From positions 1-46,760 of the forward strand of contig CAWDLW010000045.1 in assembly GCA_963803145.1 (NCBI GenBank): 46,760 nucleotides of DNA. The letters run 5' to 3'. The stretch is from Methanotrichaceae archaeon. GTDB lineage: Archaea > Halobacteriota > Methanosarcinia > Methanotrichales > Methanotrichaceae. The stretch's first letter is position 1. Every line of letters starts with the position of its first letter. The translations under genes and the position numbers were made by a program. Below are positions 27,469 to 42,138 of the stretch, piece after piece. The notes under the pieces are model-generated. The model made no database searches. It had not been told where the DNA came from and saw only the letters and a program-made list of their open reading frames with translations.

Positions 27469-27496
27469 GTAACACATTTACCAAAGAATTTATCAA
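27469..27496 (+). promoter_or_regulatory. NikR-type operator overlapping the TATA box of the permease-ATPase-cobN operon
   Basis: GTAACA-N16-TATCAA; same geometry as, and similar spacer to, 39151-39178. Confidence 0.6.
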
Positions 27497-27664
27497 TAAA
27501 GACATCAAATCTTCAGGCCAATCAAATTTAACGTATCTTAGGAGGAACATTGGTATGAAGAAAGGTTATCCGTGCCTCAAAAACGTTTGCAAGGAAATCA
27601 GTGATCTGCTTATTCCTATTTCCAGGGATAATCCTTTAGCTTCGACATTGTGCTGGCTGGTTCA

Positions 27665-28759: not shown

Positions 28760-29541
28760 ATATCACTATCGAAGGCCTTACATTTGGCTACAACGGCTCC
28801 CGGATTCTTGAGGATCTTAATCTGATTGTAGGAAATTGCGAGGTTCTTGGCCTTGTAGGGCCGAACGGTTCGGGAAAAACCACCCTGATAAAATGTATTG
28901 ACAGAATACTCAAGCCCAAAGGCAGCGTCCTCCTCGATGGCCGGGAGACGGAGAACATGAGCAGACAGGAGATAGCAAGATGCTTCGGCTATGTTCCCCA
29001 GTCCGGCGCTCCTCCCCTGGCAACTACGGTCTTTGATACTATTCTGATGGGAAGAAGGCCCCACATGGGCTGGCGAATCTCTCCTGTAGATATAGACATT
29101 GTGGCCGAGATGATAGAGCTTCTGCACCTAGACGATCTGGCAATGAGGGATTTCAGTGATCTTTCGGGAGGCCAGAAGCAGAAGGTTCTGATAGCCAGGG
29201 CTCTTTGTCAGGAGCCGAAGGTACTTCTGCTGGACGAGCCCACCTCAAACCTGGACATGAAACACCAGCTAGAGGTCATGGAGATCATCACCTCTCTAGT
29301 CAAGAAGAAGAATGTCTCAGCGGTCATGGCCATTCACGACCTCAATTTAGCCGCCAGGTTCGTGGACAAGTTGGCCATACTTAAAGGCGGCAAGATCTAC
29401 GCTGCCGGAACGCCGAAAGACCTGATAAGCACTGAGAACATCCGGGACGTCTACGGTGTCGAGGCCCTGGTAATGAACAACCTAGACCGGCCATACGTCA
29501 TTCCCCTCAGATCTCTAATCGGAGGCATGGCATGCGATTAG
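28753..29541 (+). CDS. FecE-family ABC ATPase, paralog of 10526-11305
   Basis: GPNGSGKTT, LSGGQKQ, DEPT; TTG start by analogy with the paralog. Confidence 0.9.
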   Translation: MVNITIEGLTFGYNGSRILEDLNLIVGNCEVLGLVGPNGSGKTTLIKCIDRILKPKGSVLLDGRETENMSRQEIARCFGYVPQSGAPPLATTVFDTILMGRRPHMGWRISPVDIDIVAEMIELLHLDDLAMRDFSDLSGGQKQKVLIARALCQEPKVLLLDEPTSNLDMKHQLEVMEIITSLVKKKNVSAVMAIHDLNLAARFVDKLAILKGGKIYAAGTPKDLISTENIRDVYGVEALVMNNLDRPYVIPLRSLIGGMACD

Positions 29542-32500
29542 GAGCCCTAACCTGGAGCAGCGATATGGCTCTGCTCATTGAGGCGTCCAATGATCTGGAT
29601 ATAGATCTGTATATCAGATCTGTACAGGATCTTGAGCAGGTCGGAGGGTTGGATAACTGCCTGAATGCGTTGGAAAATGTTGAGGCCATCCTCATTCACC
29701 CCACACAACAGGAGGAGTACTTCCAGCAGATCAGCGATAGGTTCGGAGGGTGGCTTCCGATAATCTCCTTCGGACATGATCAGGCTCTCTGGTCTTTCTC
29801 CAATGTTTCGGCTAGGATAGTGGCGACGATCAATGCTTACGTCGTCTACGGCGGCTTGGAGAACACTCGAAATTTGTTAAGGTATCTGGGAAAGGAGGTT
29901 CTGGGCCAGGACTATGAATACGAGCCGCCGAAGGAAATATTGTGGCAGGGGCTTTACCATCCCGATGCTCCAGAGGCTTTCCAGGCCGTGGAGGACTACC
30001 TGGCATGGTATAAGCCGGATCATGATCAAAGCATAGGAATTCTCTTCTTTAGGACATACTGGGCAAACGGGGATCTGGACATAGTGAACTCCTTGATCCG
30101 GGATCTGGAGACGGACTTCAACGTCATACCTGCCTTCTGTTTTGGCATGGGCGACAAGGAGCTGGGAGCAAAGTCGAGCGGCGAGGTTGTGATTGAGTAT
30201 TTCAAAGGAAGGGTGGATGCCATCATCAACCTCCAATCCCTGTTCCATGCGGGCTCTGTTGAAAGATCCGTCCAGGCTCTGAAGAAGCTGGATGTCCCAG
30301 TATTTCATCCTCTGACCATCTATCATAGATCAGAGGCCGAATGGCTGGAGGACATCCATGGCATGGGCGGCTATGACGTAGGATGGTCGGTGGCTATGCC
30401 CGAGTTCGAGGGCCTGATCGAGCCCATCATCGCTGGGGCTGCAGTCAAAGATCAGATCTGTGGATCTGAGTGTGAGCGCCATACAGGCATAAATGAAAGG
30501 ATGAATAAGATCGCCCGAAGGGTCAGAAGCTGGATGGCCCTAAGGAAAAAGCCTGTATCCGAGCGCAAGGTAGCCTTCATACTGCATAACAATCCTTGTG
30601 CATCTGTGGAGGCAACTGTGGGTGCCGGTGCCCATCTGGATACCTTAGAGAGCGTCGCCCGAATAATGAAGAGCATGGCCTCGGCCGGATACAACATTGA
30701 GAATATTCCTGCAAGCGGGAAGGATCTCATCGCCAATATATTAGACCACAAGGCCATATCGGAGTTCAGATGGACTCCGATCGAAGAGATAGTGAGCAAA
30801 GGCGGAGCGCTCGCCATGGTGTCCAGGAGTGATTACCAGACATGGTTCGATACCCTGTCGCAGCAGGCCCGAGACAGGATCTGCAATTCCTGGGGCAATC
30901 CGCCTGGCGAGGAAAAGGATGGCGTTCCTCCGGCCATGGTTTATCAGGATAAAATAGTGATCACAGGAGTCAGATATGGAAATGTCCTGGTCTGCGTCCA
31001 GCCCAAGAGAGGCTGCGCCGGGGCCAGATGCGACGGCCAGGTATGCAAGATCCTTCACGATCCTGAGGTTCCTCCAACCCATCAGTATCTTGCAACCTAC
31101 AAATACATAGAGCGCGACTTCGGGGCTGATATTCTGGTACATGTGGGCACCCACGGCAACCTGGAGTTCCTTCCAGGCAAATCCCTGGCGCTGTCTCAGG
31201 ATTGTTATCCCGACATAGCCATAGGAGACCTTCCACATCTGTACATCTACAACTCCGATAACCCACCGGAGGGGACGATCGCTAAGAGAAGGAGCTATGC
31301 AGTCCTTGTGGATCACATGCAGACGGTCATGACAGAGTCAGGGCTGTACGGCGACCTCAAAGAACTCGAGGACAAGATTGCCGAGTACAATCGCACCAAG
31401 GCATCGGATAAAGGACGGGCGCATGTCCTGGAGCACATCATCTTGGATTTGCTCAGGAAAGCCAAATTAAACGAGGATCTGAGCTTGGACAATGTGTCGA
31501 TCAAGGAATCTTCGTTCGATGATATTTTAGAGATTGCTCATAGTAAGATCTCCGAGATTTACAATACACAAATTCCTGAAGGCATGCATATCTTCGGCGA
31601 GGTGCCACAGGGCGAAAAGAGAACTGAGCTTATAAACTCCATTCTCAGGTATGATTCGGAGATGAGACGGCTGGTGGCCGGGTTGATGGGTACGGATCTG
31701 TCGGAATGTAAAGACATGGCGGACCTGGATATACTATCTAAGAAGCTTATATCTGCGTTCTTGGAAGGAATGGACCCATCTGAGGCTGCAAAGATGGTCT
31801 TTGGAGCCCGTCTCATAAAAATAGATAATGATGCCCTCAAAGCTATGAGGGATAAGGTAATTGACCTATCCGACAGGATCGAGGCTTCTGATGAGATTGG
31901 TTCCCTGCTCCACGGCTTTGATGGCGGATTTATAGGGCCGGGGCCATCCGGACTGATAACACGGGGAAAGCCTGAGGTTTTGCCCACAGGCAGGAATTTT
32001 TACTCGCTGGACCCATCAAATATTCCCACGGAGGCTGCCTGGAGAGTGGGACAAAAGCTAGCTGATAGCCTTATCAACAAGTACCGTGATGAGAAAGGCC
32101 GCTTGCCTGAGAATGTGGCCATGTTCTGGATGGCTAACGATATCATGTGGGCGGATGGGGAGCAGCTAGCCCAGATGATGTATCTCATAGGGGCGGAACC
32201 TCAGTGGAAAGGCGGAAAGGTTCGGGGATTCCGGATCATCCCCCTGGAAGAGATGGGAAGGCCTAGAATCGATATCACTGTGAGAGTCAGCGGAATCACC
32301 AGGGATTGCTTCCTCAACTGCATAGAGTACCTGGATGAGGCCATACGAGCAATCTCAAGCCTGGATGAGCCGGAGGATATGAACTATCTGAGGAAGCACT
32401 CCTTAGAGAGCGGAGAGCAGGCAAGGATATTTGCAAGCTTGCCGGGAACTTATGGAAACGGCGTCAACCTGGCGGTCTATGCCTCGGCCTGGAAGGAGGA

Positions 32501-33239
32501 GAAGGATCTATCGGATATATTCCTTCAGTGGAACAGCTATGCCTATGGGAAGGGCGTCTTTGGCCAAGAATCCAAAAGCGCTATGATCGGCCAGCTCAAA
32601 AGCGTGGATGTCACATTCAACAAGACGGTGACGGATGAGTATGATCTCTTTGGGTGCTGCTGCTACTTTGGGACTCATGGCGGCCTGACCAGTGCAGCCC
32701 GAGAATTATCTGGTCACGAGGTGGCCATCTATTACGGAGACACAAGGGATAGGGATAATGTAGGGATAAGGACACTGGCGGAAGAAGTCCGGAGAGTAGT
32801 GCGGACAAAGCTTCTCAATCCCAAGTGGATTGAGGGAATGAAGCAGCATGGCTACAAAGGCGCCAGCGATATCTCCAAGAGAGTTGGCCGGGTCTATGGA
32901 TGGGAGGCCACTACTAGCGAGGTGGATGACTGGATCTTCGATGACATAGCTAAGACTTTTATCCTTGATGAGGAGAACAGGAAATTTTTCGAAGAGAACA
33001 ACCCTTGGGCGATGGAGGAGATGGGAAGAAGGCTGCTTGAGGCCAACCAGCGGGGGCTATGGAAGGCAGACAAAGAGGTTCTTGAAGCCCTTAAGTCTGC
33101 TTATCTTGAGATCGAGGGCTGGATGGAGGAGAAGATAGGAGAGACGGGTGGCAGCTTCCAGGGCGGAGCGATAGATGTTGTAACTTTGAATGAGGCTAAG
33201 AGGTGGCGAGAGAATTTATCGAAGACCGACAAATCATGA
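29532..33239 (+). CDS. cobN: CobN/ChlH-family chelatase large subunit
   Basis: PEFEG, HVGTHGNLEFLPGK, LPTGRNFY, GRPRID, NPKWIEGMKQHGYKGA; 1235 aa. Confidence 0.93.
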   Translation: MRLGALTWSSDMALLIEASNDLDIDLYIRSVQDLEQVGGLDNCLNALENVEAILIHPTQQEEYFQQISDRFGGWLPIISFGHDQALWSFSNVSARIVATINAYVVYGGLENTRNLLRYLGKEVLGQDYEYEPPKEILWQGLYHPDAPEAFQAVEDYLAWYKPDHDQSIGILFFRTYWANGDLDIVNSLIRDLETDFNVIPAFCFGMGDKELGAKSSGEVVIEYFKGRVDAIINLQSLFHAGSVERSVQALKKLDVPVFHPLTIYHRSEAEWLEDIHGMGGYDVGWSVAMPEFEGLIEPIIAGAAVKDQICGSECERHTGINERMNKIARRVRSWMALRKKPVSERKVAFILHNNPCASVEATVGAGAHLDTLESVARIMKSMASAGYNIENIPASGKDLIANILDHKAISEFRWTPIEEIVSKGGALAMVSRSDYQTWFDTLSQQARDRICNSWGNPPGEEKDGVPPAMVYQDKIVITGVRYGNVLVCVQPKRGCAGARCDGQVCKILHDPEVPPTHQYLATYKYIERDFGADILVHVGTHGNLEFLPGKSLALSQDCYPDIAIGDLPHLYIYNSDNPPEGTIAKRRSYAVLVDHMQTVMTESGLYGDLKELEDKIAEYNRTKASDKGRAHVLEHIILDLLRKAKLNEDLSLDNVSIKESSFDDILEIAHSKISEIYNTQIPEGMHIFGEVPQGEKRTELINSILRYDSEMRRLVAGLMGTDLSECKDMADLDILSKKLISAFLEGMDPSEAAKMVFGARLIKIDNDALKAMRDKVIDLSDRIEASDEIGSLLHGFDGGFIGPGPSGLITRGKPEVLPTGRNFYSLDPSNIPTEAAWRVGQKLADSLINKYRDEKGRLPENVAMFWMANDIMWADGEQLAQMMYLIGAEPQWKGGKVRGFRIIPLEEMGRPRIDITVRVSGITRDCFLNCIEYLDEAIRAISSLDEPEDMNYLRKHSLESGEQARIFASLPGTYGNGVNLAVYASAWKEEKDLSDIFLQWNSYAYGKGVFGQESKSAMIGQLKSVDVTFNKTVTDEYDLFGCCCYFGTHGGLTSAARELSGHEVAIYYGDTRDRDNVGIRTLAEEVRRVVRTKLLNPKWIEGMKQHGYKGASDISKRVGRVYGWEATTSEVDDWIFDDIAKTFILDEENRKFFEENNPWAMEEMGRRLLEANQRGLWKADKEVLEALKSAYLEIEGWMEEKIGETGGSFQGGAIDVVTLNEAKRWRENLSKTDKS

Positions 33240-33399
33240 GTCATTTTGTATAAGGATGGCTGGGCAGTCCGGAAAACCTATTTTTACTCCAAAATTTTAA
33301 TTTTCATCACTGATAAAGCGGGTGTTTGCTTTCTGAATGACAATGAAGACAATTGAAAATGAGTTATGTCTGCTCCATTCCTCAGAATGTTTTGTTTTA

Positions 33400-33564
33400 G
33401 AGTAAAAGCATAAGAGGTGCGCCCTGACCAGGTCGCCAGAACCCAGGGCGACCCATGGCATTAGGCCAGGGCACATTGTTCATCCTAATCCAGCCACTTA
33501 TGGCTGTGAGCGCTGTAGATTTGGCCGGTCTAGGTAAAGGAGGTCATGAGGCCACTCGCTCACA
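33400..33564 (-). ncRNA. Candidate NikR-regulated anti-SD sRNA, copy A
   Basis: Stem TGTGAGCG/CGCTCACA enclosing CCTCCTTTACCT, followed by two more hairpins and a short T-tract; no ORF downstream. 3' end approximate. Confidence 0.7.
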
Positions 33565-33585
33565 ATGAGAGGATTCTCATACTTA

Positions 33586-33613
33586 GTATTAAATATTTCG
33601 ATAATAGTGTTAC
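33586..33613 (-). promoter_or_regulatory. NikR-type operator and TATA of sRNA copy A
   Basis: Minus strand GTAACA-N16-TAATAC overlapping TTTAATA. Confidence 0.7.
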
Positions 33614-33779
33614 TAACCGTCGTCTGATATCAATTACTATTTTGTTCTACCTTGAGATCATTCAGGACGAACGGCAACCGAGATGATAGCGTGCATGTAG
33701 AGAAGCTGGCCGAAAAAATGTTTGACATGGACGACTCGGAGCTTTTCAGCGCTGACTTAAGTTAACCAGGTGAGGGTCA

Positions 33780-33926
33780 TTGAGCCTTATAGATCTGAAG
33801 GAGATCTACACGGCATATGAGTGCGGTGACAAGCCCGTTATAAGGGCCCTATCCTTAAGCGTGGATAAAGGCGAACATCTTGTTATCGGCGGCCCAAACA
33901 GCGTCGGGAAGGCGACACTACTGTAG
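33780..33926 (+). pseudogene. Remnant N-terminus of a metal ABC transporter ATPase
   Basis: Manual translation MSLIDLKEIYTAYECGDKPVIRALSLSVDKGEHLVIGGPNSVGKATLL*; decayed Walker A; AGGTGA RBS upstream. Confidence 0.7.
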
Positions 33927-34041
33927 TCGATAACTAATAAATGATACGCAAAGAATTCCTTATAACAAAAAATCCGAAAAATATTAACTGATATTGAACG
34001 ATAATAGATAGTAAATATATAAACATCCATTATATTGTCGA

Positions 34042-34069
34042 GTAGCACAATTTTCGAAAGATTTATTAC
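34042..34069 (+). promoter_or_regulatory. NikR-type operator and TATA of sRNA copy B
   Basis: GTAGCA-N16-TATTAC overlapping TTTATTA. Confidence 0.7.
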
Positions 34070-34086
34070 TTAATGGGATTAATTCC

Positions 34087-34260
34087 GGCATGTGAGCGAT
34101 AAATCATGTAGGCCTCCTTTACCTCCATAAGATATAGCGCTCACTTGTCATTAAAACACTGAGGAAGATGAGTACCCTAACGTGAAATGTCTGCCCAAGC
34201 ACATTGGGCTTCAGCATTCGTGAACTCTGCAGGGGGACTCATCATCTTAAGTTCTTCAGG
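34087..34260 (+). ncRNA. Candidate NikR-regulated anti-SD sRNA, copy B
   Basis: Stem GTGAGCG (34092-34098) / CGCTCAC (34138-34144) enclosing GGCCTCCTTTACCTCC; second long hairpin 34159-34259. Ends approximate. Confidence 0.7.
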
Positions 34261-35114
34261 AGTCCCGTTACCCAATCAGAAGATAGAAGATAAAACCACA
34301 AGATTACGAAGTCTTGAACATATGAGGATTTGGATGCATATGCATCCGCAAGATTACAAGCCAGGAAGTTTCATATTGGTAAATCAATCCGAAGAACGTT
34401 GAGGGATGCCTATTAGACTCAAATATATCCTTATTTTGGTAGCTCTAACTGCGCTATGCATCTCCGCTTTTGGAAAGGAGTACACCCCAGATTATTGGTT
34501 ACAAAAAGGCGACCAATTTTTTAATAAGGGCTCTTATGACCTGGCCATCGATTGTTATAATAAATCAATCGAGCTTGATTCAAAGAACATATCCGCCTGG
34601 ATAAAGAAAGGCTCTACTCTTATCAATTTAGATAAAAACATCGAGGCCATACAAGCATATGATGCCGCTATTCAACTAAATCCTAAAATTCCGGAAGCAT
34701 GGCATGGAAAGGGCATGGCTCTTGCTAACCTAGGAAAATACAACGAATCCCTTAAAGCTTTAGACAAAGCCGTTGAGCTAAATCCAAAACCCATCGATGG
34801 TTGGTATAGCAAAGGTCTGGTTCTTGCAGGTCTTGGAAAATACAATGAAGCTGTAAACGCATATGATATGGTTATAAGTCAAGATCCAAAATCCATTAAT
34901 GGCTGGTACAACAAAGGATTGGTTCTTGCTAACTTGGGCAAATACAACGAGTCCATTAAGACTTTTGATCAGGCCATTGAATTAGATGTGAAATTCGCTC
35001 CGGCATGGTATAGCAAAGGCATGGTTCTCGCTAGCCTGGGAAGATATAACGAGTCTATTAACGCATTTAATAAGGCCATTGAAATAAATCCTATAGATGA
35101 ATCCTCTTGGACTA

Positions 35115-36197
35115 TAGTTAATCCACGTAATTTTTACCTCATAGATACCCTTAAATAATTAATATACGATATAGCCGTTCATGGGCAGGAAACCTGTAAT
35201 TGTAAGACATATCTCGAAGGTAGAATTAGATCAATTGTATAAAGATGAGAGAAACATAAGAATTAAAGAACGGCTACTAGCGATAATACATTTATACGAA
35301 GGAAAGAATGTATATATAGTAGCTGATATTCTTAAACGAAGTGAAAAGACAATAAAGAATTGGCTAAGCGATTGGAACAAACAAGGATATGATGGATTGA
35401 TACCACAGAATAGAAACGGCAAAGAACCAATGATATCTTTTGATGAATGGGATAAAATTATCGAAGAGATTGAGGACAAAGGAATGACTATAAAAGAGGT
35501 AATAAAATATGCAAAAGATACAAGAGGCGTAGAATATTCGTATAAAGGTGGTTGGAAGATTTTAAGATCAATAAAGAAAGTCAAATATGGTAAACCATAT
35601 ATTAGAAATAATAAGAGGCCTGTTAATGCAGAAAGTTTTCTAAAAAAAGGATAGATTCAGTAATAACAACAGTCAAAGAACCTATTATTGGATTCCTTGA
35701 TGAAAGCTCTTTGCAACAGCGACCTAATACACGCAGGGTTTTAAACACCCATATGCTAAATTATCAACCTGGAAAAGTTAGGTCTAGAACTGTTTTTGGG
35801 TTCATTGCATTGAATGGAAATGATGAAGTTATGGTCTCTCACTCATCCAAGAAAGAAGATTTAATGATCTTCGCCCAAAAATTGAGAAGTAACAATATTA
35901 TGAGACCAATATGTATTGTCCTAGATAATGCTAGAATACATCTAGCTAAGAAGTTTAGGGCATTAGCCCACGAACTTGATATCCATTTAATATATAACGT
36001 GCCATATTCCCCTGATTTAAATCCTATAGAGTTCGGTTGGAAGGATTTTAAAAGAGAGATATCAAAATATACTGATTTTGATGAAGCTATTGAGGATGCC
36101 CAAGATTGCGCTTTACAAATATTTTATTCCAATAAAGATGGATACTCTAAGTCTTGGATAAAGCAGTTTATAAGGTAAAAAGTTGGGAGAATGACTA
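35115..36197 (+). mobile_element. IS630-family insertion sequence
   Basis: TA duplication (35113-35114, 36198-36199), imperfect inverted repeats TAGTTAATCCACGTAATTTTTACCT / AGGTAAAAAGTTGGGAGAATGACTA, AT-rich. Confidence 0.92.
35181..36178 (+). CDS. IS630 transposase, two ORFs joined by -1 frameshift
   Basis: HTH ORF 35181-35654; slippery AAAAAAAG at 35642-35649; -1 frame gives FLDES, VLDNARIH, YSPDLNPIE (DDE). Confidence 0.88.
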
Positions 36198-37121
36198 TAA
36201 TAAAGGCGAATCACTCTATGCGATCGGTAAATATAACGAGTCCATTAAAGCATTCAACAAAGCTCTCGAAATAGAATCGAATGAAGCCAATACATGGGAC
36301 GACCTCGGCCACGCCCTAAGAATGTCAGGCAGATATGAGGACTCCCTTAATGCTTACAACAAGACAATTGAACTAGATCCTAAAAATAGCAATGCCTGGA
36401 ATGCGAAAGGCCTAATCCTCGCTAATCTGAGCAGGTATAACGAGTCTTCAAAGTGTTTCTATAGGGCGAGCGAGATAAATCCGCAGGAGTGGAGATTCTG
36501 GTACAACAATGGTCTTGTTCTCGTTAAAGCGAATAATCAGAGTGGCGTCGTCAATGCCTTTGATAAGGCAGCCAAGCTGAATCCTAAATGCGACGCTTGC
36601 TGGAATAATGAAGGCCTATCCTTAGCTAAACAAGGATTATACGATATGGCCATACAGGCATATGATGAAGCTATAAAAATAAACAGCCGATATTCGGATG
36701 CCTGGAACAACAAAGGCATTGCCCTAATACAATCCGATGAAGATTTTAATGGGTCAATCACATGCTTCAACAAAGCCATCGAGATAAATCCAAAAAGTGT
36801 AGAGGCCTGGGTCAATAAAAGCAACGCACTTAAAGCACTTGGCCGAAATGACGAAGCGGATGTTGCCTATTCCAATGCTAAAGAGCTGGGATATCCAGGA
36901 TAGCTTCGACTGCATCAAAGCTGCCTGCAATTAAGCTATGGCAAACCGGAAGAATGGCCGTGTGTCCGTTTGACCGAAGATCGAGGGTTGTAGCTCGTTA
37001 GCATGAAAGTCAACGAATTCACTTAGCAAAATAAAGTCAACCATTATAAGATTCTACAAATTCAGTTTATTTCAATAAAGTTTATTACTAAGTAACATCA
37101 TAATGAAGATCGCGATATAAT

Positions 37122-37544
37122 ATGGAACAAGAACTCACGAGAATCGGCGTTTCATTGCCAGAGAATCTGCTTGCGAATTTCGACAAGATAATTCTTCAGC
37201 GAGGCTACTCCTCACGTTCAGAGGGTATCAGAGATGCCATCAGAAACTATATAGTCACATATGAATGGATGAGCGATGTCCAAGGGGAACGTGTGGGCGT
37301 GATAACGATTGTCTATTCTCATTCGCAGCGCGGGCTGTTGGAAAACCTTACTGAAATTCAACATGAATTCGGCAGCACAATTCAGTCCAGCATGCACATT
37401 CATTTGGATCATGATAACTGTCTTGAGGTCATTGTTCTTAGAGGCGAGGGCCAGGACGTGAAAACAGCTGCAGAGAGAATGATGGCCTTGAAGGGCGTAA
37501 AGCATGTTAAGCTCACCACAACTTCGCTTGGAAAAGAACTCTAG
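37122..37544 (+). CDS. nikR: Nickel-responsive transcriptional regulator NikR
   Basis: RIGVSLP ribbon, [31 protein letters not shown] nickel site. Confidence 0.97.
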
Positions 37545-37855
37545 ACGTGTTCTCTTGCCGTAAAGCCCTCTGGACATAGGGGTTCATCCGTTTTGTCTTC
37601 GAATATTATTATCTCTTCGATTCGAAGCCCTTGGTTGGGCTTTGCTCATATACGAAGGAACTGATCTCCTTCTACATATGCCGATCGCCGGAAGCTCCTC
37701 CTTGGCGGTTGTACTATCCAAGATCAATAAGTCCTCTAAGTCCCTTCTAACCATAGGCGATATCCAATCGGAAAAAAAGAAGAATATTGAATTATTAGCT
37801 GCTATTGAAGCGCTTCGTTCGGTTATTGTCGGAAGTGATGAATAAAAAATATGTA

Positions 37856-38176
37856 CTAGTTTTTGGTGACTTTCTTGCCCACGAAGTAAAGAACGCCACC
37901 GCATACTATAACGCCAATCGCTGCTGAAAGAATGTAGGCTGTTGCTGACAATGTTCTCGAATCGCTATTTTCGCCGCCTGGAAATGCATAATCTGGCAGA
38001 GGTGCATTCCAAAGCCCTGAGAGCTTCTCCAGGCCATGGGGCACAAAGCCAACCTTATTCTTGATATCCTCCGATCCCCATTCGCCGAAGGTTTCACCGA
38101 CAGCTAGCAGGCCGAGAGGCGTTAAAATTATTAGCAATGCCATCCCAATAGCGAAGTTTCTTACCATTTTATCCAT
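37856..38176 (-). CDS. PDGLE-domain protein (NikN-like)
   Basis: LTPLGLLA.GETFGEWG, GLEKL, APLPDY; coupled to the upstream cbiM/nikM gene. Confidence 0.85.
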   Translation of the reverse strand: MDKMVRNFAIGMALLIILTPLGLLAVGETFGEWGSEDIKNKVGFVPHGLEKLSGLWNAPLPDYAFPGGENSDSRTLSATAYILSAAIGVIVCGGVLYFVGKKVTKN

Positions 38177-38904
38177 TATCTCACCTCAGGCAGTTGAAGC
38201 AAATTGGTCTTTTTCTTCGGGAATGTGGATTCTTCAACCTGCAGAATGGATGTATCTGTCTTCTGAATATATGCGAAGATCAGTGCAGTTACCAATGCCT
38301 CAAGGATGCTGAATCCCAGAGCATGCTCCAGAACCATTGTCGGCATAGTTACATTCAGGCCATAGGGCATATAGAGTGGGATACCATTGACGTCATGCTG
38401 AAGAATAGGCTGTATTCCTAATTCAAAGCCAGCAAAACCAGCAGCAATTGTAAGGGATACCCAGCCAGCAACGGCTGAGGCAAGTACTCTTCTCGATGAA
38501 GCTATGTCTGTGCTGCCGCTGAGAAACTTGTAGACATAATAGCCAACAAAGGGGATTACCACTCCCATATTGAAACAGTTGGCAGCAATAGCGGTTATTC
38601 CTCCATCTCCGAACACAAGCGCTTGCATCACCAAAGCAACTGACATGGCTATTACTGCTGTCCAAGGCCCAAGAACAATGCCAATTATTGCACCTCCAAC
38701 AGCATGGCCTGTGCTGCCTCCAGGAATCGGCATATTGAACATCATTATCACGAAGGAGAATGCAGATGCCAGGGCTAAGAGTGGAACCTGCTTGGACTTC
38801 AGCTCTGTGCCCAGCTTTTTTCCGGCATAATACCAGATAGGGATCATTATGATCCACATTGCTATGTAAGTGTATGGCCCTAGATAGCCATCAGGAATAT
38901 GCAT
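38176..38904 (-). CDS. nikM: Ni/Co ECF S component (NikM-type CbiM family)
   Basis: MHIPDGYL N-terminus (Ni-type), GGSTGHAVG, FGDGGITA. Confidence 0.85.
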   Translation of the reverse strand: MHIPDGYLGPYTYIAMWIIMIPIWYYAGKKLGTELKSKQVPLLALASAFSFVIMMFNMPIPGGSTGHAVGGAIIGIVLGPWTAVIAMSVALVMQALVFGDGGITAIAANCFNMGVVIPFVGYYVYKFLSGSTDIASSRRVLASAVAGWVSLTIAAGFAGFELGIQPILQHDVNGIPLYMPYGLNVTMPTMVLEHALGFSILEALVTALIFAYIQKTDTSILQVEESTFPKKKTNLLQLPEVR

Positions 38905-39150
38905 TATTTCACCAGGATATTGAGTACTCATTTAGTTATAAAAGGATATCGAATGGACATATCAAGTAAGAAATTTACGCGCTTTTTTGCTAAATACACA
39001 GGATATTTAATTAGTGGATCCGATCTAAATAAGCACAAATAAAAAAAGAATCAAAAGAAATAACATTAATTAGATATTCTTGCTACTAAATCTGTGTCGA
39101 TAACGGCCATATTATGCGAAGGAGACACTGACTCATATTAGTATGCTTTC

Positions 39151-39178
39151 GTAACACTTTATCCAAAGTGTTTATTAC
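39151..39178 (+). promoter_or_regulatory. NikR-type operator and TATA of sRNA copy C
   Basis: GTAACA-N16-TATTAC overlapping TTTATTA. Confidence 0.7.
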
Positions 39179-39200
39179 TAAGTGAGATAATGCTTTTGTG

Positions 39201-39335
39201 GTGAGTGAGGTGTTATCCAAATGCGGCCTCCTCTACCTGCATTTAGGCAGGTAACGGCTCACAACTCTAAGTCTGATGTATGGCATCAGTAGTATGCCAT
39301 GAGGCTCTCCGGTGGTTGGGAATTCCCTAGCACCA
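39201..39335 (+). ncRNA. Candidate NikR-regulated anti-SD sRNA, copy C
   Basis: GTGAGT/GCTCAC, GTTATC/GGTAAC and AAATGC/GCATTT stems around GGCCTCCTCTACCT; further hairpins 39280-39300 and 39311-39334. Confidence 0.7.
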
Positions 39336-39491
39336 AATGATTATTCAAAATGAACTTGTAGTTTAACATCTGTTTTATTACAAAATTCTTGAATAGTATG
39401 CTCTTAATATGACTTTTTTCATGATTTAGAGGATATCTTAAAATAATATGACAAATAAGTCGTACTATAGCATACGATATTCGAGGAGGGA

Positions 39492-40469
39492 ATGATTCTG
39501 AGAAAGGCCGTTTTTGCGCTGCTGGCTCTCTTTGCCCTTATTTGCATGGCAGTCGCAGAACAAGCAGATGATAATGCAGCGTATAACAATCCAACATCTA
39601 TAGAAGAAAAAAATCTAATTTTCCATTTAGACCAAAAGGTGAGCGGAATAGGCTTCTTTTCGACATACAAATACTCCATAATGCCTGACGTTCTTGGCAC
39701 TGAAGGACGCCTATTCAATGGCGTCGAAGCCAAGAACCAAGCACATGGAAGCGGCAAAATCGACACAGATTCGATGATGTATGCAGAAAGTTCGTACAAG
39801 AATACAACTTGGATCGATGGAACATTAGACGAAGATGGCGAGATTATTCAAAATAAAGAAGAATCAACCAGTGTCGTCCAAGTGAAGGAAGATGGTAAAA
39901 TGACCTACGGTCCGATGGCTATGGATATAGGCTCACGATACTATAATCTTCATCCCGTATCTTTCAATTCTCTGCTCAAGGAGGATTCTTGGATAAAGAA
40001 TCGTGATGGTTTGAATTCTCTTTATCACAGGGTTGATAATGCCCACGGACTGAACATAGCACTTGATGCACAATCCGATAACACCAATAACACAATGAAT
40101 GTGGACGAGGATTTAATCAATGGCCGTGTACACTTCGGAGCGCTTCAACTGACTGGAATTCCCGTGGACGAAGTGCCGGAGGAAAGTGATTTTGAGGAAT
40201 CTCCAGTCCTCGGCTTAGCGATGAAGGCATGGCAGAAGCCCTCAATAGAACTAGACGAGGACTATGTAGGGTCGTTTCATATCAGGAAGAATATGACATT
40301 ATACACGTATTCAGAAGAGAAAGAAAAGGAAGAGGACTGGTTGCCCTGCTGTTCAGATGGTTGGGATGACATGCGAGACTACGATAAGATTGGCTATGGT
40401 AAGAGCACAAAGGGTGTTTTTGATTGCACCTGCTTTGATGTGCCGAGACGAGCGCAATTTCCGAGATAA
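39492..40469 (+). CDS. Secreted acidic hypothetical protein (WLPCC family)
   Basis: Signal peptide; HGSG, FNSLLKE, YVGSFHIRKNM, DWLPCC, FDCTC. Confidence 0.7.
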   Translation: MILRKAVFALLALFALICMAVAEQADDNAAYNNPTSIEEKNLIFHLDQKVSGIGFFSTYKYSIMPDVLGTEGRLFNGVEAKNQAHGSGKIDTDSMMYAESSYKNTTWIDGTLDEDGEIIQNKEESTSVVQVKEDGKMTYGPMAMDIGSRYYNLHPVSFNSLLKEDSWIKNRDGLNSLYHRVDNAHGLNIALDAQSDNTNNTMNVDEDLINGRVHFGALQLTGIPVDEVPEESDFEESPVLGLAMKAWQKPSIELDEDYVGSFHIRKNMTLYTYSEEKEKEEDWLPCCSDGWDDMRDYDKIGYGKSTKGVFDCTCFDVPRRAQFPR

Positions 40470-40703
40470 TATGTGGAATCCTGAATGATTTTCCCTAATC
40501 AACAATTTTCCGATTGATTCATAGCCTTGCACAGCCCTCAAGAGTTTGCTAGAAGGCATTTCCGCCAATAGATATCCTGTTCAGCAAAGGCAGTGGACTC
40601 ATTGCATCATTCAATTGAACACCTGCCGCAGCTCCACTGCTTCTATTATTTTCATCCCGCCCAGCAAGGCGTTAAATAGACTGTGATTGTAGAATAAACC
40701 GCC

Positions 40704-41936
40704 TTGAACAGAGTCTTCACAGTTACAGAGCTTAACGAGCGGATAAGGGACCGCCTGGAGACCGATGTGAGGCTGCATGATCTCTGGGCAAAGGGAGAGC
40801 TATCCAATGTCACGAACCACCGCTCAGGCCATAGGTACTTCACAATAAAGGATAGGGGATCTCAGCTATCCTGCGTGCTCTTTAGGAATCAGGGCGTCCG
40901 ACTTGGCTTTGAGCTAAAGAATGGCCTAAACGTGCTCGTTTTCGGAGATATCGATGTTTACAGCGCCAGGGGACAGGTCCAGCTAATCGCTCGCGGCATC
41001 AGGCTTGATTCTGGCCTGGGCCTCCGGCATATTGAGTTCGATGCTATTAAGAACAAGCTGGCGGCAGAGGGACTTTTTTCCTTGGATCGAAAGAGAAGCT
41101 TACCCAGATATCCCACACGAATCGGCATTGTGACATCGCTTGATGGGGCGGCGCTTAGGGACGTAATCAAGACAATTGGCCATTATCCTGCCAGGATCAT
41201 GCTATCGCCGGCACAGGTACAGGGCGATGACGCCCCGGAAAGCATAGCATGTGCAATACGGTCTCTGCAGGGCAGGGTGGAAGTAGTAATAGTTTGCAGA
41301 GGCGGGGGTTCCATTGAAGATCTCTGGGCATTCAACTCTGAGATCGTTGCACGAGCCATATTTGATTGCGACTCGCCCGTCATTTCTGCAATAGGTCATG
41401 AGACCGATTTTACGATAGCCGATTTTGTGGCAGATGTTAGAGCGGCTACGCCAACAGCTGCCGCAGAGATGGCCGTGCCAGATCCTACAGAGATTAAGAT
41501 AACTCTGGCCCAGATCGAAACACGGATGGCCAGAGCACTGTGGTCGTGCCTTGAGATCAGACAGGATCGGCTGGACTACCTCAATCGAAGCGTATCTGCC
41601 AAAAGAATGTACTCATCGATTGGCATAGAGCGCAGAAGCGTTGACCGCTTGCGGGAAAGGCTCCTCTCGGCAGAAACATCAAGGCTTGAGCTTCTCCGGA
41701 AAAGGCTGGAGCTGGCAGAAGGCCGCCTGGCGGCAGTCAGTCCTCTGGCAACGCTATCCAGAGGCTATGCGCTTGCGAGGTCTGAGAAAGGTAACCTTGT
41801 CACCAGGGCAGAGGATGTTGCCACTGATGATGTGATTGAAATAATACTGTCGGAGGGACGGCTGATATGCAGGGTGCTCGAAAAGAAGGAGGGGATTTCG
41901 AATGGGTCAAATAGGTCAAATGGCCTTGAAGAATGA
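40704..41936 (+). CDS. xseA: Exodeoxyribonuclease VII large subunit
   Basis: GELSN, SGHRYF, GAALRD, RGGGSIEDLWAFN, SAIGHETD, TPTAAAE, LSRGYA. Confidence 0.95.
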   Translation: MNRVFTVTELNERIRDRLETDVRLHDLWAKGELSNVTNHRSGHRYFTIKDRGSQLSCVLFRNQGVRLGFELKNGLNVLVFGDIDVYSARGQVQLIARGIRLDSGLGLRHIEFDAIKNKLAAEGLFSLDRKRSLPRYPTRIGIVTSLDGAALRDVIKTIGHYPARIMLSPAQVQGDDAPESIACAIRSLQGRVEVVIVCRGGGSIEDLWAFNSEIVARAIFDCDSPVISAIGHETDFTIADFVADVRAATPTAAAEMAVPDPTEIKITLAQIETRMARALWSCLEIRQDRLDYLNRSVSAKRMYSSIGIERRSVDRLRERLLSAETSRLELLRKRLELAEGRLAAVSPLATLSRGYALARSEKGNLVTRAEDVATDDVIEIILSEGRLICRVLEKKEGISNGSNRSNGLEE

Positions 41937-42138
41937 TCTGAACCTAGAAGATGCTCTGAATGACCTTGAGCAGATTGTGTCAGATCTTGAGGATGGAAAG
42001 CTAACGCTTGAGGAAAGCCTTGAGCTCTTCGAGAAGGGTGTCCGGCTGGTCAGGCTATGTAGTTCAAAGCTCGATACTGCTGAGCAGAGGATAGAGAGCC
42101 TGACTGGAGAGGTGCCTGAGGATCTGGCAGGGCGATAA
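41902..42138 (+). CDS. xseB: Exodeoxyribonuclease VII small subunit
   Basis: LEQIVSDLEDGKLTLEESLELFEKG...C...L..AE. Confidence 0.93.
   Translation: MGQIGQMALKNDLNLEDALNDLEQIVSDLEDGKLTLEESLELFEKGVRLVRLCSSKLDTAEQRIESLTGEVPEDLAGR

Follow-up and report, generated by a model that had tools for sequence, protein, structure and literature searches.

Predicted small RNAs with NikR-type promoter boxes and an anti-Shine-Dalgarno loop in Methanotrichaceae: a candidate nickel-linked control of mcrB

The window analysed here (the whole stretch of 46,760 nt, positions 1 to 46,760 of contig CAWDLW010000045.1 in assembly GCA_963803145.1 of a Methanotrichaceae archaeon) contains three intergenic elements, here called A, B and C, that lie around nikR, the gene for a nickel-responsive regulator. 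They are paralogous members of an RNA family that, among the genomes searched, is confined to Methanotrichaceae. The family itself, the covariation of its stem, a promoter shared with nikR, an association with nickel and metal genes, and conserved complementarities to gene starts were all computed here. We put at about one in two (0.5) the full mechanism to which they point, namely that the elements are paralogous NikR-controlled small RNAs (sRNAs), made under nickel shortage, that mask the ribosome-binding site (RBS) of mcrB.

Three elements with a common architecture

The elements, their predicted parts and the promoter of nikR lie in the window as follows.

33613-33395, minus strand: copy A, whole element (box, hairpin and conserved extent)
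33586..33613, minus strand: copy A promoter, the inverted repeat GTAACA-N16-TAATAC with the TATA box TTTAATAC as its right arm, a putative NikR operator (pattern scan, shuffles)
33395..33563, minus strand: copy A predicted sRNA of ~170 nt, with a 5' hairpin (33563..33506) bearing the loop CCUCCUUUACCU, then one small and one large, GC-rich hairpin and a tail of CUUUUAC (folding, same-genus orthologue)
34042-34255, plus strand: copy B, whole element (box, hairpin and conserved extent)
34042..34069, plus strand: copy B promoter, GTAGCA-N16-TATTAC overlapping the TATA box (pattern scan, shuffles)
34092..34255, plus strand: copy B predicted sRNA of ~165 nt, with a 5' hairpin (34092..34144) whose apical loop CCUCCUUUA is closed by AGG/CCU, then a long hairpin AAGAUGAGUACCC...GGGGGACUCAUCAUCUU (folding, orthologue alignment)
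39151-39346, plus strand: copy C, whole element (box, hairpin and conserved extent)
39151..39178, plus strand: copy C promoter, GTAACA-N16-TATTAC overlapping the TATA box, 220 nt from the divergent cbiM (pattern scan, shuffles)
39201..39346, plus strand: copy C predicted sRNA of ~145 nt, with a 5' hairpin (39201..39262) bearing CCUCCUCUACCU, two more hairpins and a U-rich end (folding, four-way alignment)
37081..37098, plus strand: nikR promoter TTTATTACTAAGTAACAT, 41 nt before the nikR ATG, with the same TATA-proximal motif as the sRNA promoters (pattern scan)

The three boxes share the consensus GTARCA-N16-TAWTAC, the right arm of which falls within TTTAWTAC, the TATA box. A spacer of 22 nt separates the end of the box from GTGAG in every copy (GTGAG at 33563 on the minus strand, 34092 and 39201 on the plus strand), which puts the start of GTGAG 23 nt past the last base of the box and 30 nt past the first T of TTTAWTAC. 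From there a GTGAGYG...GCTCAC hairpin encloses the loop sequence CCTCCTYTACCT in all three, as CCTCCTTTACCT in A (33563..33506) and B (34092..34144) and as CCTCCTCTACCT in C (39201..39262). The folding energies of these 5' hairpins run from -15 to -22 kcal/mol. Aligned with their flanks, the copies have a mean column identity of 68% over 272 columns; their 3' parts are mutually unrelated, and each of these is conserved in the orthologue of a same-genus genome.

The original prediction had described three elements of common architecture around nikR, with this exact spacing and with unrelated 3' parts, and every feature that it named was found at its place; what it did not say of the 3' parts is that each is kept in its own orthologue. 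Its claim of an exposed anti-Shine-Dalgarno (anti-SD) loop stands for A and B, where the predicted unpaired probability of the loop is 0.71 and 0.82, and less clearly for C, where it is 0.30.

Within the window the box pattern occurs three times against 0.01 expected from dinucleotide shuffles (none of 100 reached three), and the loop 12-mer likewise three times against 0.01 expected. Counts for the organism's own genome refer to assembly G000 (4,132,845 bases in 51 contigs, 45% G+C), which is rated 6.77% contaminated, so that foreign contigs may enter them. In this assembly the combined stem and loop pattern finds A, B and C only; the box pattern finds four sites, the fourth of which (C15:422198) is without the remaining features.

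Distribution and conservation of the family

The original prediction had proposed a covariance model and a search of related genomes and of Rfam. A model built from A, B and C (R1) gave significant matches in 33 of 36 genomes of the host family, Methanotrichaceae, and in two sister families nothing but matches at E>0.3. A second model, R2, built from 32 hits, found the element at E<=0.01 in 94 of 104 other Methanotrichaceae genomes, in one to seven copies each, with 15 of 16 genera represented. When the whole class was sampled at E<=0.001, R2 matched 69 of 74 genomes of family f1 and one of three of f2 (weakly, E = 7e-4), and none of the 67 genomes of f3, the four of f4 or the two of f5. The family is thus spread across Methanotrichaceae and absent from f3, f4 and f5 in this sample. 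A cmscan of positions 31000-42000 against Rfam at E<=10 returned three hits, all at chance level and away from A, B and C, so that no Rfam family covers these.

A scan of public genomes (596 Gb) with the pattern TTTATTAC-N35-65-CCTCCTTTACC was very loose: at least 120 stretches matched, mostly by chance and in bacteria, and the scan is uninformative on distribution outside the class. Among the 80 named loci listed from it, 11 match R2, all of them titled Methanotrichaceae, Methanothrix, Methanosaeta or Methanosarcinales archaeon. At G073:C1:1390539 (locus L277) there is a further exact AGGTAAAGGAGG site, not matched by the model, whose opposite strand has a weaker promoter, TTAATTAGTATTAATATC; this strand is perhaps a degenerate copy of the element.

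Conservation is strongest in two places. The first is the promoter (..GTAAYAC..N..CGAAAAG-TTTATTAC-TAAGTAAGAT..) and the second is the word G(G/A)CCUCCUUUACC, ~20-30 nt into the predicted transcript. Of the cells of the 7-bp closing stem 87.1% are paired, as compared with 61.7% after column shuffling and 30-52% in slid controls, and 76 cells are changed on both sides, against 19.8 in shuffles (0/500 as high); the alignment used was itself fitted to the covariance model, which has to be set against these figures. The covariation that the original prediction had proposed to look for is thus present in the closing stem, and the G-U pairs of the stem agree with the proposed strand. Over 39 copies the loop word has a mean unpaired probability of 0.61, as compared with 0.38 for the rest of the hairpin, and it often forms a 9-nt apical loop, CCUCCUUUA, closed by GG/CC. 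Copy C excepted, then, a conserved structure with an anti-SD stretch predicted to be unpaired is found. The GTGAG...CTCAC closing stem of the original prediction is present in A, B and C and common in the family, but not universal: in one genus there is no closing stem, although the word is kept and is followed by a hairpin and UUUU.

The promoter motif and nikR

In the whole genome the TATA-proximal word TTTAWTACYWADT occurs seven times: once in each of A, B and C, once in the nikR promoter (37081) and at three further sites. Upstream of nikR a motif of the form TTAWTACTA(A/T/C)(A/G)TA.. stands ~41 nt before the ATG in all 29 readable genomes of the family (one further locus is truncated). 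A looser, 16-nt promoter pattern gave four matches in one complete genome, all of them the nikR promoter or one of three elements, and none in the control. Across five genomes 12 of its 16 matches are nikR promoters (5) or elements (7), but the reversed control gives 15 matches, so that the pattern alone is unspecific, a point to be held against the scheme proposed below. The same type of promoter, without the RNA word, is found directly before a NikA-like gene.

The genes near the elements also point to metals. Outside the window, 28 of 48 copies lie within 5 kb of genes for CbiM, CbiQ, NikA-like, NikB/C-like, NikD/E-like, FecCD, Peripla_BP_2, CobN, NikR or LarA proteins, whereas by the same test 3.0% of the own genome is that close, a ~19-fold excess. 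Motif and neighbourhood together speak in favour of the original prediction, in that they tie this promoter type to nikR and to nickel transport: it stands before nikR in 29 of 29 genomes and before the NikA-like gene, and 28 of 48 copies have nickel or metal transport neighbours. NikR itself is 75-94% identical across the family. A second nikR paralogue of the own genome (G000:C17:160259-160678, locus L108) is 87% identical and is preceded by the same promoter word, AAGCTTATTACTACGTAACAC; two nikR genes are present in many genomes of the family.

Are the boxes operators of NikR? The E. coli NikR operator is GTATGA-N16-TCATAC. Two inverted half-sites about two helical turns apart are seen in the boxes of A, B and C and, as a symmetry, across the family: at N16 the left hexamer agrees with the reverse complement of TATTAC at a mean of 4.16 of six positions, with four or more matches in 34 of 44 rows and 0.9-3.0 in slid controls (44 of 54 rows were used; ten dropped out because the TATA expression missed CTTATTAC variants). 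Judged by motif sharing, the box is a putative NikR operator, and the motif a defined candidate for the promoter/operator of an archaeal NikR regulon in Methanotrichaceae. In Helicobacter pylori, according to PMC5385501, NikR binds TRTTA-N15-TAWTA and represses three non-coding RNAs. For Methanothermobacter, PMC12350162 describes a NikR homologue and a CobN homologue that are produced only under nickel limitation.

mcrB as the predicted target

The 3' end of the organism's own 16S rRNA reads ...GGAUCACCUCCUAA, and the loop therefore contains an anti-SD word. The conserved loop is longer than this word. The 12-nt core of the loop, CCUCCUUUACCU, is perfectly complementary to AGGUAAAGGAGG, which occurs at a single gene start of the own genome, 9 nt before the GTG of mcrB (identity of McrB confirmed by Pfam). 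No other open reading frame (ORF) start has 12 contiguous complementary bases, the next best having 10. When the conserved core was ranked by duplex energy against 5411 ORF starts, one start per ORF, mcrB came first at -20.7 kcal/mol, with the next at -17.6. The original prediction had the loop blocking RBSs that resemble GGAGG or AGGUAAAGGAGG; the second of these words is the RBS of mcrB. An earlier energy ranking, with 8219 in-frame starts and 16-nt copy-specific loops, was rejected as dominated by GC-rich flanks and internal pseudo-starts; in it mcrB lay outside the top 40 and cdhA was 8th.

Across the family the mcrB leader, CUGCUAAAAAGGUAAAGGAGGAUAAAGAAC-GUG, is almost invariant. The exact 12-mer is present at mcrB in 33 of 39 readable genomes from 15 genera (one further genome, G065, is masked with N ahead of mcrB); the others are a genus that has an additional A, two variants with one base changed, and the single genome from a genus in which no sRNA was detected. 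Five complete genomes contain the 12-mer nine times, namely at the five mcrB sites, twice as the antisense of sRNAs and at two other places (one inside a coding frame in G030, one at G073:1390539), against three times in the reversed control. Twenty genomes offered both data sets, and in 12 of them a copy has at least 11 bases complementary to the mcrB leader of its own genome, a figure reached by at most 1 of 200 shuffles. Complementarity to the mcrB RBS is therefore conserved across species, though not in the genera g8, g13 and g5. The fold of the mcrB leader is not unusually structured (z = -0.37), giving no sign of an activating rearrangement, and the mcrD, mcrG and mcrA starts have no match comparable to that of mcrB, except mcrD with copy C at -22.6 kcal/mol.

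The site at cdhA, (A)AAGAGGAGGCCAAGAACC, is also conserved, and is complementary to copy C over 10 nt. By duplex energy cdhA ranks 16 with copy B and 20 with copy C among the 5411 starts. Its matches reach 9-12 nt in g5 and g8, exactly the genera in which mcrB is matched over a short stretch; of 16 genomes in all, four have at least 9 nt and nine at least 8 nt. From these complementarities cdhA would be a weaker, lineage-variable second target candidate. The expectation that genes of nickel enzymes would be targets is thus borne out in part: mcrB ranks first by the core and cdhA ranks high with B and C, but the extended mcrB match fails in three genera. A supposed covariation between the 5' flank of the loop (GG/GA) and the 3' flank of the cdhA site (CC/UC) fits g5, g8 and part of g2 and fails in g6, g9 and g13, and no claim is made of it.

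Some copies lie close to these genes. In the Methanothrix harundinacea-like genus g8 one copy is found ~8.2 kb upstream of mcrB in eight genomes. At locus L059 (G019:C147:1-7645) a copy lies in the gap that separates the end of mcrBDGA from the start of cdhA; mcrA appears there as two ORFs of 289 codons, pointing to a frameshift or an error of assembly.

Separate RNA genes or leaders

Starts and ends of the predicted transcripts were placed by promoter geometry and by the points at which conservation breaks. Compared with its same-genus orthologue, copy A keeps the promoter and ~170 nt, similarity being lost from ~33395, and copy B keeps the promoter and ~165 nt, to ~34250, before diverging; orthologues overall conserve the promoter and 145-190 nt and then diverge. 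The 3' hairpin of copy A is common to copies in two other genera. A four-way alignment of the copy-C type over three genera keeps three hairpins despite changed sequence and has a T-rich end, after which come a variable spacer and then the conserved GGATATCTTAAAATAA (39431-39446), ~45 nt ahead of the following ORF. Copy A converges on the end of cobN, as does its orthologue, and no ORF lies downstream of copy A.

Neighbours were classified for the 51 best hits in 40 ten-kb loci and the window (the three weakest of 54 were dropped), with an ORF threshold of 150 aa. The first downstream feature is a converging ORF in 19 copies, 12 of them with the loop word, and in four there is no ORF within 1.5 kb, so that 23 of the 51 are without a co-directional ORF as first feature. 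There is no conserved ORF in the elements, and small ORFs on the opposite strand behind AGGTAAAGGAGG were rejected for want of a conserved frame. The genes downstream vary between copies: a constant place before one gene family, as a leader or riboswitch would have, was not found, except for the copy-C type, whose ORF has a promoter-like block of its own. The break in conservation after 145-190 nt, and the 12 copies with the loop that have a converging gene as neighbour, make the elements look like separate small non-coding RNA genes with predicted products of ~145-190 nt.

Proposed mechanism and alternatives

In the mechanism that we propose, the TATA box of each promoter would be the right arm of the inverted repeat GTAAYA-N16-TATTAC, in the geometry of the E. 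coli NikR operator. Nickel-loaded NikR would occupy this repeat together with the adjacent TAAGTAAGA, thereby excluding TBP and TFB and shutting the promoter; when nickel is low, the promoters that drive nikR, some uptake genes and the sRNAs would open. The 5' hairpin would then present G(G/A)CCUCCUUUACCU, which includes the anti-SD word of the 16S rRNA 3' end, and the 12-nt core would pair with the RBS of mcrB, first gene of the mcrBDGA operon for methyl-coenzyme M reductase (MCR), an F430-nickel enzyme. Such pairing would block the 30S subunit, reduce synthesis of the cell's largest nickel sink and so spare nickel. A weaker second match, favoured by copy C and in some lineages, would be cdhA, for the nickel enzyme CO dehydrogenase/acetyl-CoA synthase. 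In this scheme everything from transcription, with its start and end, through NikR binding and nickel dependence to intracellular pairing and the sign of its effect is read from sequence. In its family-wide form, in which NikR-controlled paralogous sRNAs clamp the mcrB RBS (that of cdhA in some lineages) on nickel starvation throughout Methanotrichaceae, we hold it tentatively and at a little less than even odds.

A number of observations weigh against this scheme. On the side of the promoter, the nikR promoters have no clear left arm at N16, and the cbiM promoter beside copy C has no such palindrome. Were the sRNAs real but the motif that of another regulator, or a strong promoter type, their expression would depend on neither nickel nor NikR; this would suit the nikR promoters, and also the facts that the TATA box itself forms the palindrome's right arm, that the preceding CGAAA looks like an ordinary B recognition element, that the left arm is only moderately conserved (G 25/44, T 40/44, A 31/44), and that 20 of 48 copies are without any tested metal gene within 5 kb. 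We think this unlikely, since the motif is rare (seven sites in 4.1 Mb, four of them A, B, C and nikR) and precedes nikR in every readable genome, its N16 spacing is that of the E. coli operator, the metal neighbours are in ~19-fold excess, and the high identity of NikR across the family fits a fixed operator; the AT-rich pentamers also resemble the H. pylori consensus. On the side of the target, anti-SD loops of any kind pair with many SD sites. When the 19-nt loop of each copy is used in place of the core, mcrB falls from rank 1 to ranks 5 (A), 30 (B) and 353 (C), copy C is complementary to it over just 6 nt, and in the minimum-energy fold of copy C the CCUCC pairs with an upstream GAGG, which makes exposure of the loop less clear. 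Only 20 of 43 copies reach 10 nt of complementarity to mcrB, the match being short in g8 (6-7 nt), g13 (5 nt), g5 (8 nt) and one g10 genome (7 nt). Four near-complete genomes of the family have no RNA match even at E<=10, and G002, the sole one of the four whose mcrB leader was read, retains the mcrB site, whose conservation is thus independent of the RNA. The RNAs could also be general anti-SD RNAs with many or different targets (cdhA, acs, others), or act by some other titration, the mcrB match then merely reflecting a strong extended SD: the mcrB site is kept in G002, CCUCCU is the tail of 16S rRNA, ~20 ORF starts carry UAAAGGAGG, cdhA ranks well with B and C and is matched where mcrB is not, and one genome has a copy between mcrBDGA and cdhA. 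That the conserved loop reaches 7 nt past the SD core (UUUACCU) and there matches mcrB alone among the 5411 starts, that elsewhere in five complete genomes the 12-mer is no commoner than by chance, and that the mcrB match holds in 12 of 20 genomes make this improbable to our minds.

The arrangement of the genes raises a different doubt. As first feature downstream, 28 of 51 copies have a same-strand ORF of at least 150 aa, at 17-1445 nt, and some of these ORFs are nickel-related (a LarA-type nickel-pincer racemase, a CobB/CfbB-type amidase, FeoB, cdhA); some copies may accordingly serve as leaders. The element as a whole could be a cis-acting 5' leader of nickel-related mRNAs, its anti-SD hairpin acting on the RBS of its own message or on mRNA stability. 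With this would agree the conserved secreted protein after copy C in three genera, the copy C loop complementary to GAGGAGG ahead of that ORF (39492), and the same promoter type directly before the NikA-like gene. Yet 19 copies converge on their neighbour and four have no ORF within 1.5 kb, A and its orthologue face the end of cobN, and conservation ends after 145-190 nt; ORF 39492 behind copy C has a conserved TATA-like block to itself, ~45 nt ahead of its start, the loop is constant while the downstream genes differ, and the promoter copies nearest to an ORF are the ones without the loop motif. A leader as the general function is, in our estimate, no likelier than the alternatives just described. 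We give far less weight to the idea of a mobile or selfish repeat, or of a gene for a small protein; in its favour are an IS630-type transposase 1 kb from copy B and a 59-codon ORF overlapping the RNA of copy A. The original prediction had named many copies with terminal inverted repeats and target duplications as a sign of a mobile repeat; there are three copies in 4.13 Mb, with no such repeats or duplications seen, and the copies lie in conserved synteny. The ORF overlapping copy A is not kept in the orthologue, and the opposite strand yields no conserved peptide. Separate sRNA genes under NikR, with mcrB as their target, thus remain our preferred reading.

Surroundings of the elements

The other features of the locus are these.

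29532..33239, plus strand: cobN-type chelatase subunit, on whose end copy A converges (Pfam, NCBIfam, synteny; same arrangement in a same-genus genome)
34406-35158 and 36154-36903: halves of a TPR gene (ORF list, Pfam)
35181-35654: HTH ORF between the TPR halves (Pfam)
35711-36178: DDE_3 ORF between the TPR halves (Pfam)
37122..37544, plus strand: nikR, with a ribbon-helix-helix domain and the NikR C-terminal nickel-binding domain (Pfam; NCBIfam nickel-responsive regulator, 220.5 bits against a cut-off of 111)
37856..38176, minus strand: PDGLE-domain partner of cbiM (Pfam, NCBIfam)
38176..38931, minus strand: cbiM/nikM-type S component, divergent from copy C (Pfam, NCBIfam)
39492..40469, plus strand: ORF for a secreted Cys-rich protein, with its own conserved TATA-like GGATATCTTAAAATAA at 39431..39446 (no Pfam/NCBIfam match; arrangement conserved)

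The cobN-type gene closes a run of Peripla_BP_2, FecCD and ABC ATPase genes, and a ChlI/ChlD-type chelatase gene lies on the opposite strand. A box-like GTAACA-N16-TATCAA stands at 27469-27496, upstream of the FecCD gene; after it come a good SD and an ORF of 37 codons, out of frame with the GTG start at 27650, perhaps because of a frameshift or because the start was mis-called. Between copies A and B the short open frame 33780-33926 resembles the N-terminus of an ABC ATPase (..GPNSVGKATLL*) with an early stop; at 48 aa it has no Pfam match, and it may be a gene remnant. Copy B precedes the TPR-repeat gene, which has a signal peptide and is apparently split by an IS630-type element (34406-36903).

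The true start of cbiM is probably the MHIPDG methionine at residue 10, the listed ORF beginning nine codons earlier; MHIPDG is what we take to be the usual metal-binding N-terminus of CbiM/NikM. A conserved TATA-like CTTTTATAAC lies only ~10 nt ahead of the listed ATG (window 38904-38950), and the cbiM mRNA is on this account probably leaderless or near-leaderless from the MHIPDG methionine.

In three genera the ORF at 39492-40469, to which neither Pfam nor NCBIfam gave a family, comes after the cbiMN-sRNA-C arrangement. Its product is a candidate accessory of nickel uptake. The protein is Cys-rich at the C terminus, and tblastn finds six matching places (paralogues) in the own genome. One paralogue, on contig C23 (~139700, locus L107), has a full box, GTAATA-N16-TATTAC, ~330 nt upstream at C23:140053 (minus strand), with no CCUCC hairpin alongside.

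Relation to known systems

The logic proposed for A, B and C is that of Fur and RyhB in enterobacteria, where the metal-loaded repressor keeps the sRNA off and starvation lets the sRNA lower the synthesis of metal-rich proteins. The metal, the regulator family and the domain of life are different, and RyhB works with Hfq and RNase E, mostly by degrading its targets. With the operator of E. coli NikR the boxes share inverted hexamers of the form GTA...A exactly 16 bp apart that overlap the core promoter, and the locus contains the gene for a regulator that is, like E. coli NikR, of the tetrameric ribbon-helix-helix kind. They differ in having GTAAYA in place of GTATGA, in the predicted double use of the right arm as an archaeal TATA box, and in a further TAA-GTAAGA that follows.

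Closer in kind is NikS of H. pylori (HPnc4160/IsoB), which is repressed by nickel-NikR together with Nrr1/Nrr2, through half-sites that are AT-rich pentamers two helical turns apart (NikS is reviewed in PMC8322730). NikS is bacterial and has no sequence or structure likeness to A, B and C; it is a single gene with a phase-variable T tract, and its targets are virulence and outer-membrane genes, not nickel enzymes. The elements described here differ from it in their operator over an archaeal TATA box, in their one to seven paralogues, and in having the main nickel consumer as predicted target. Another relative in kind is sRNA41 of Methanosarcina mazei (and loop 2 of sRNA154), archaeal and intergenic, whose anti-RBS sequence masks RBSs; according to PMC5867862 it represses acetyl-CoA decarbonylase/synthase (cdh) mRNAs at translation, and cdhA is here the second predicted target. 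sRNA41 responds to nitrogen and not to nickel. A, B and C differ from it in promoter, in structure and in their main predicted target, mcrB, and the model matches none of the 67 genomes of the sister family f3.

NikR-repressed sRNAs, RBS-masking archaeal sRNAs and metal-sparing sRNAs are thus known kinds, from H. pylori, M. mazei and RyhB respectively. According to the original prediction no NikR-sRNA family of methanogens is known to be described; in the full-text literature exclusive of supplementary files, and in Rfam, we found no description of this family, of a NikR-linked archaeal sRNA or of an mcrB-directed sRNA.

MCR sets the rate of biological methane formation, and the control of its amount is little understood. 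Nickel supply limits methanogens in nature and in digesters, and Methanothrix is widely regarded as a major acetoclastic methane producer. If the proposed mechanism is true, it would be the first metal-sparing riboregulation in Archaea, the first archaeal counterpart of control of the RyhB/NikS type, and would provide the first known trans-acting regulator of MCR. It would also offer a natural antisense handle on MCR expression, and a testable mechanism tying trace-metal supply to methane output in Methanothrix.

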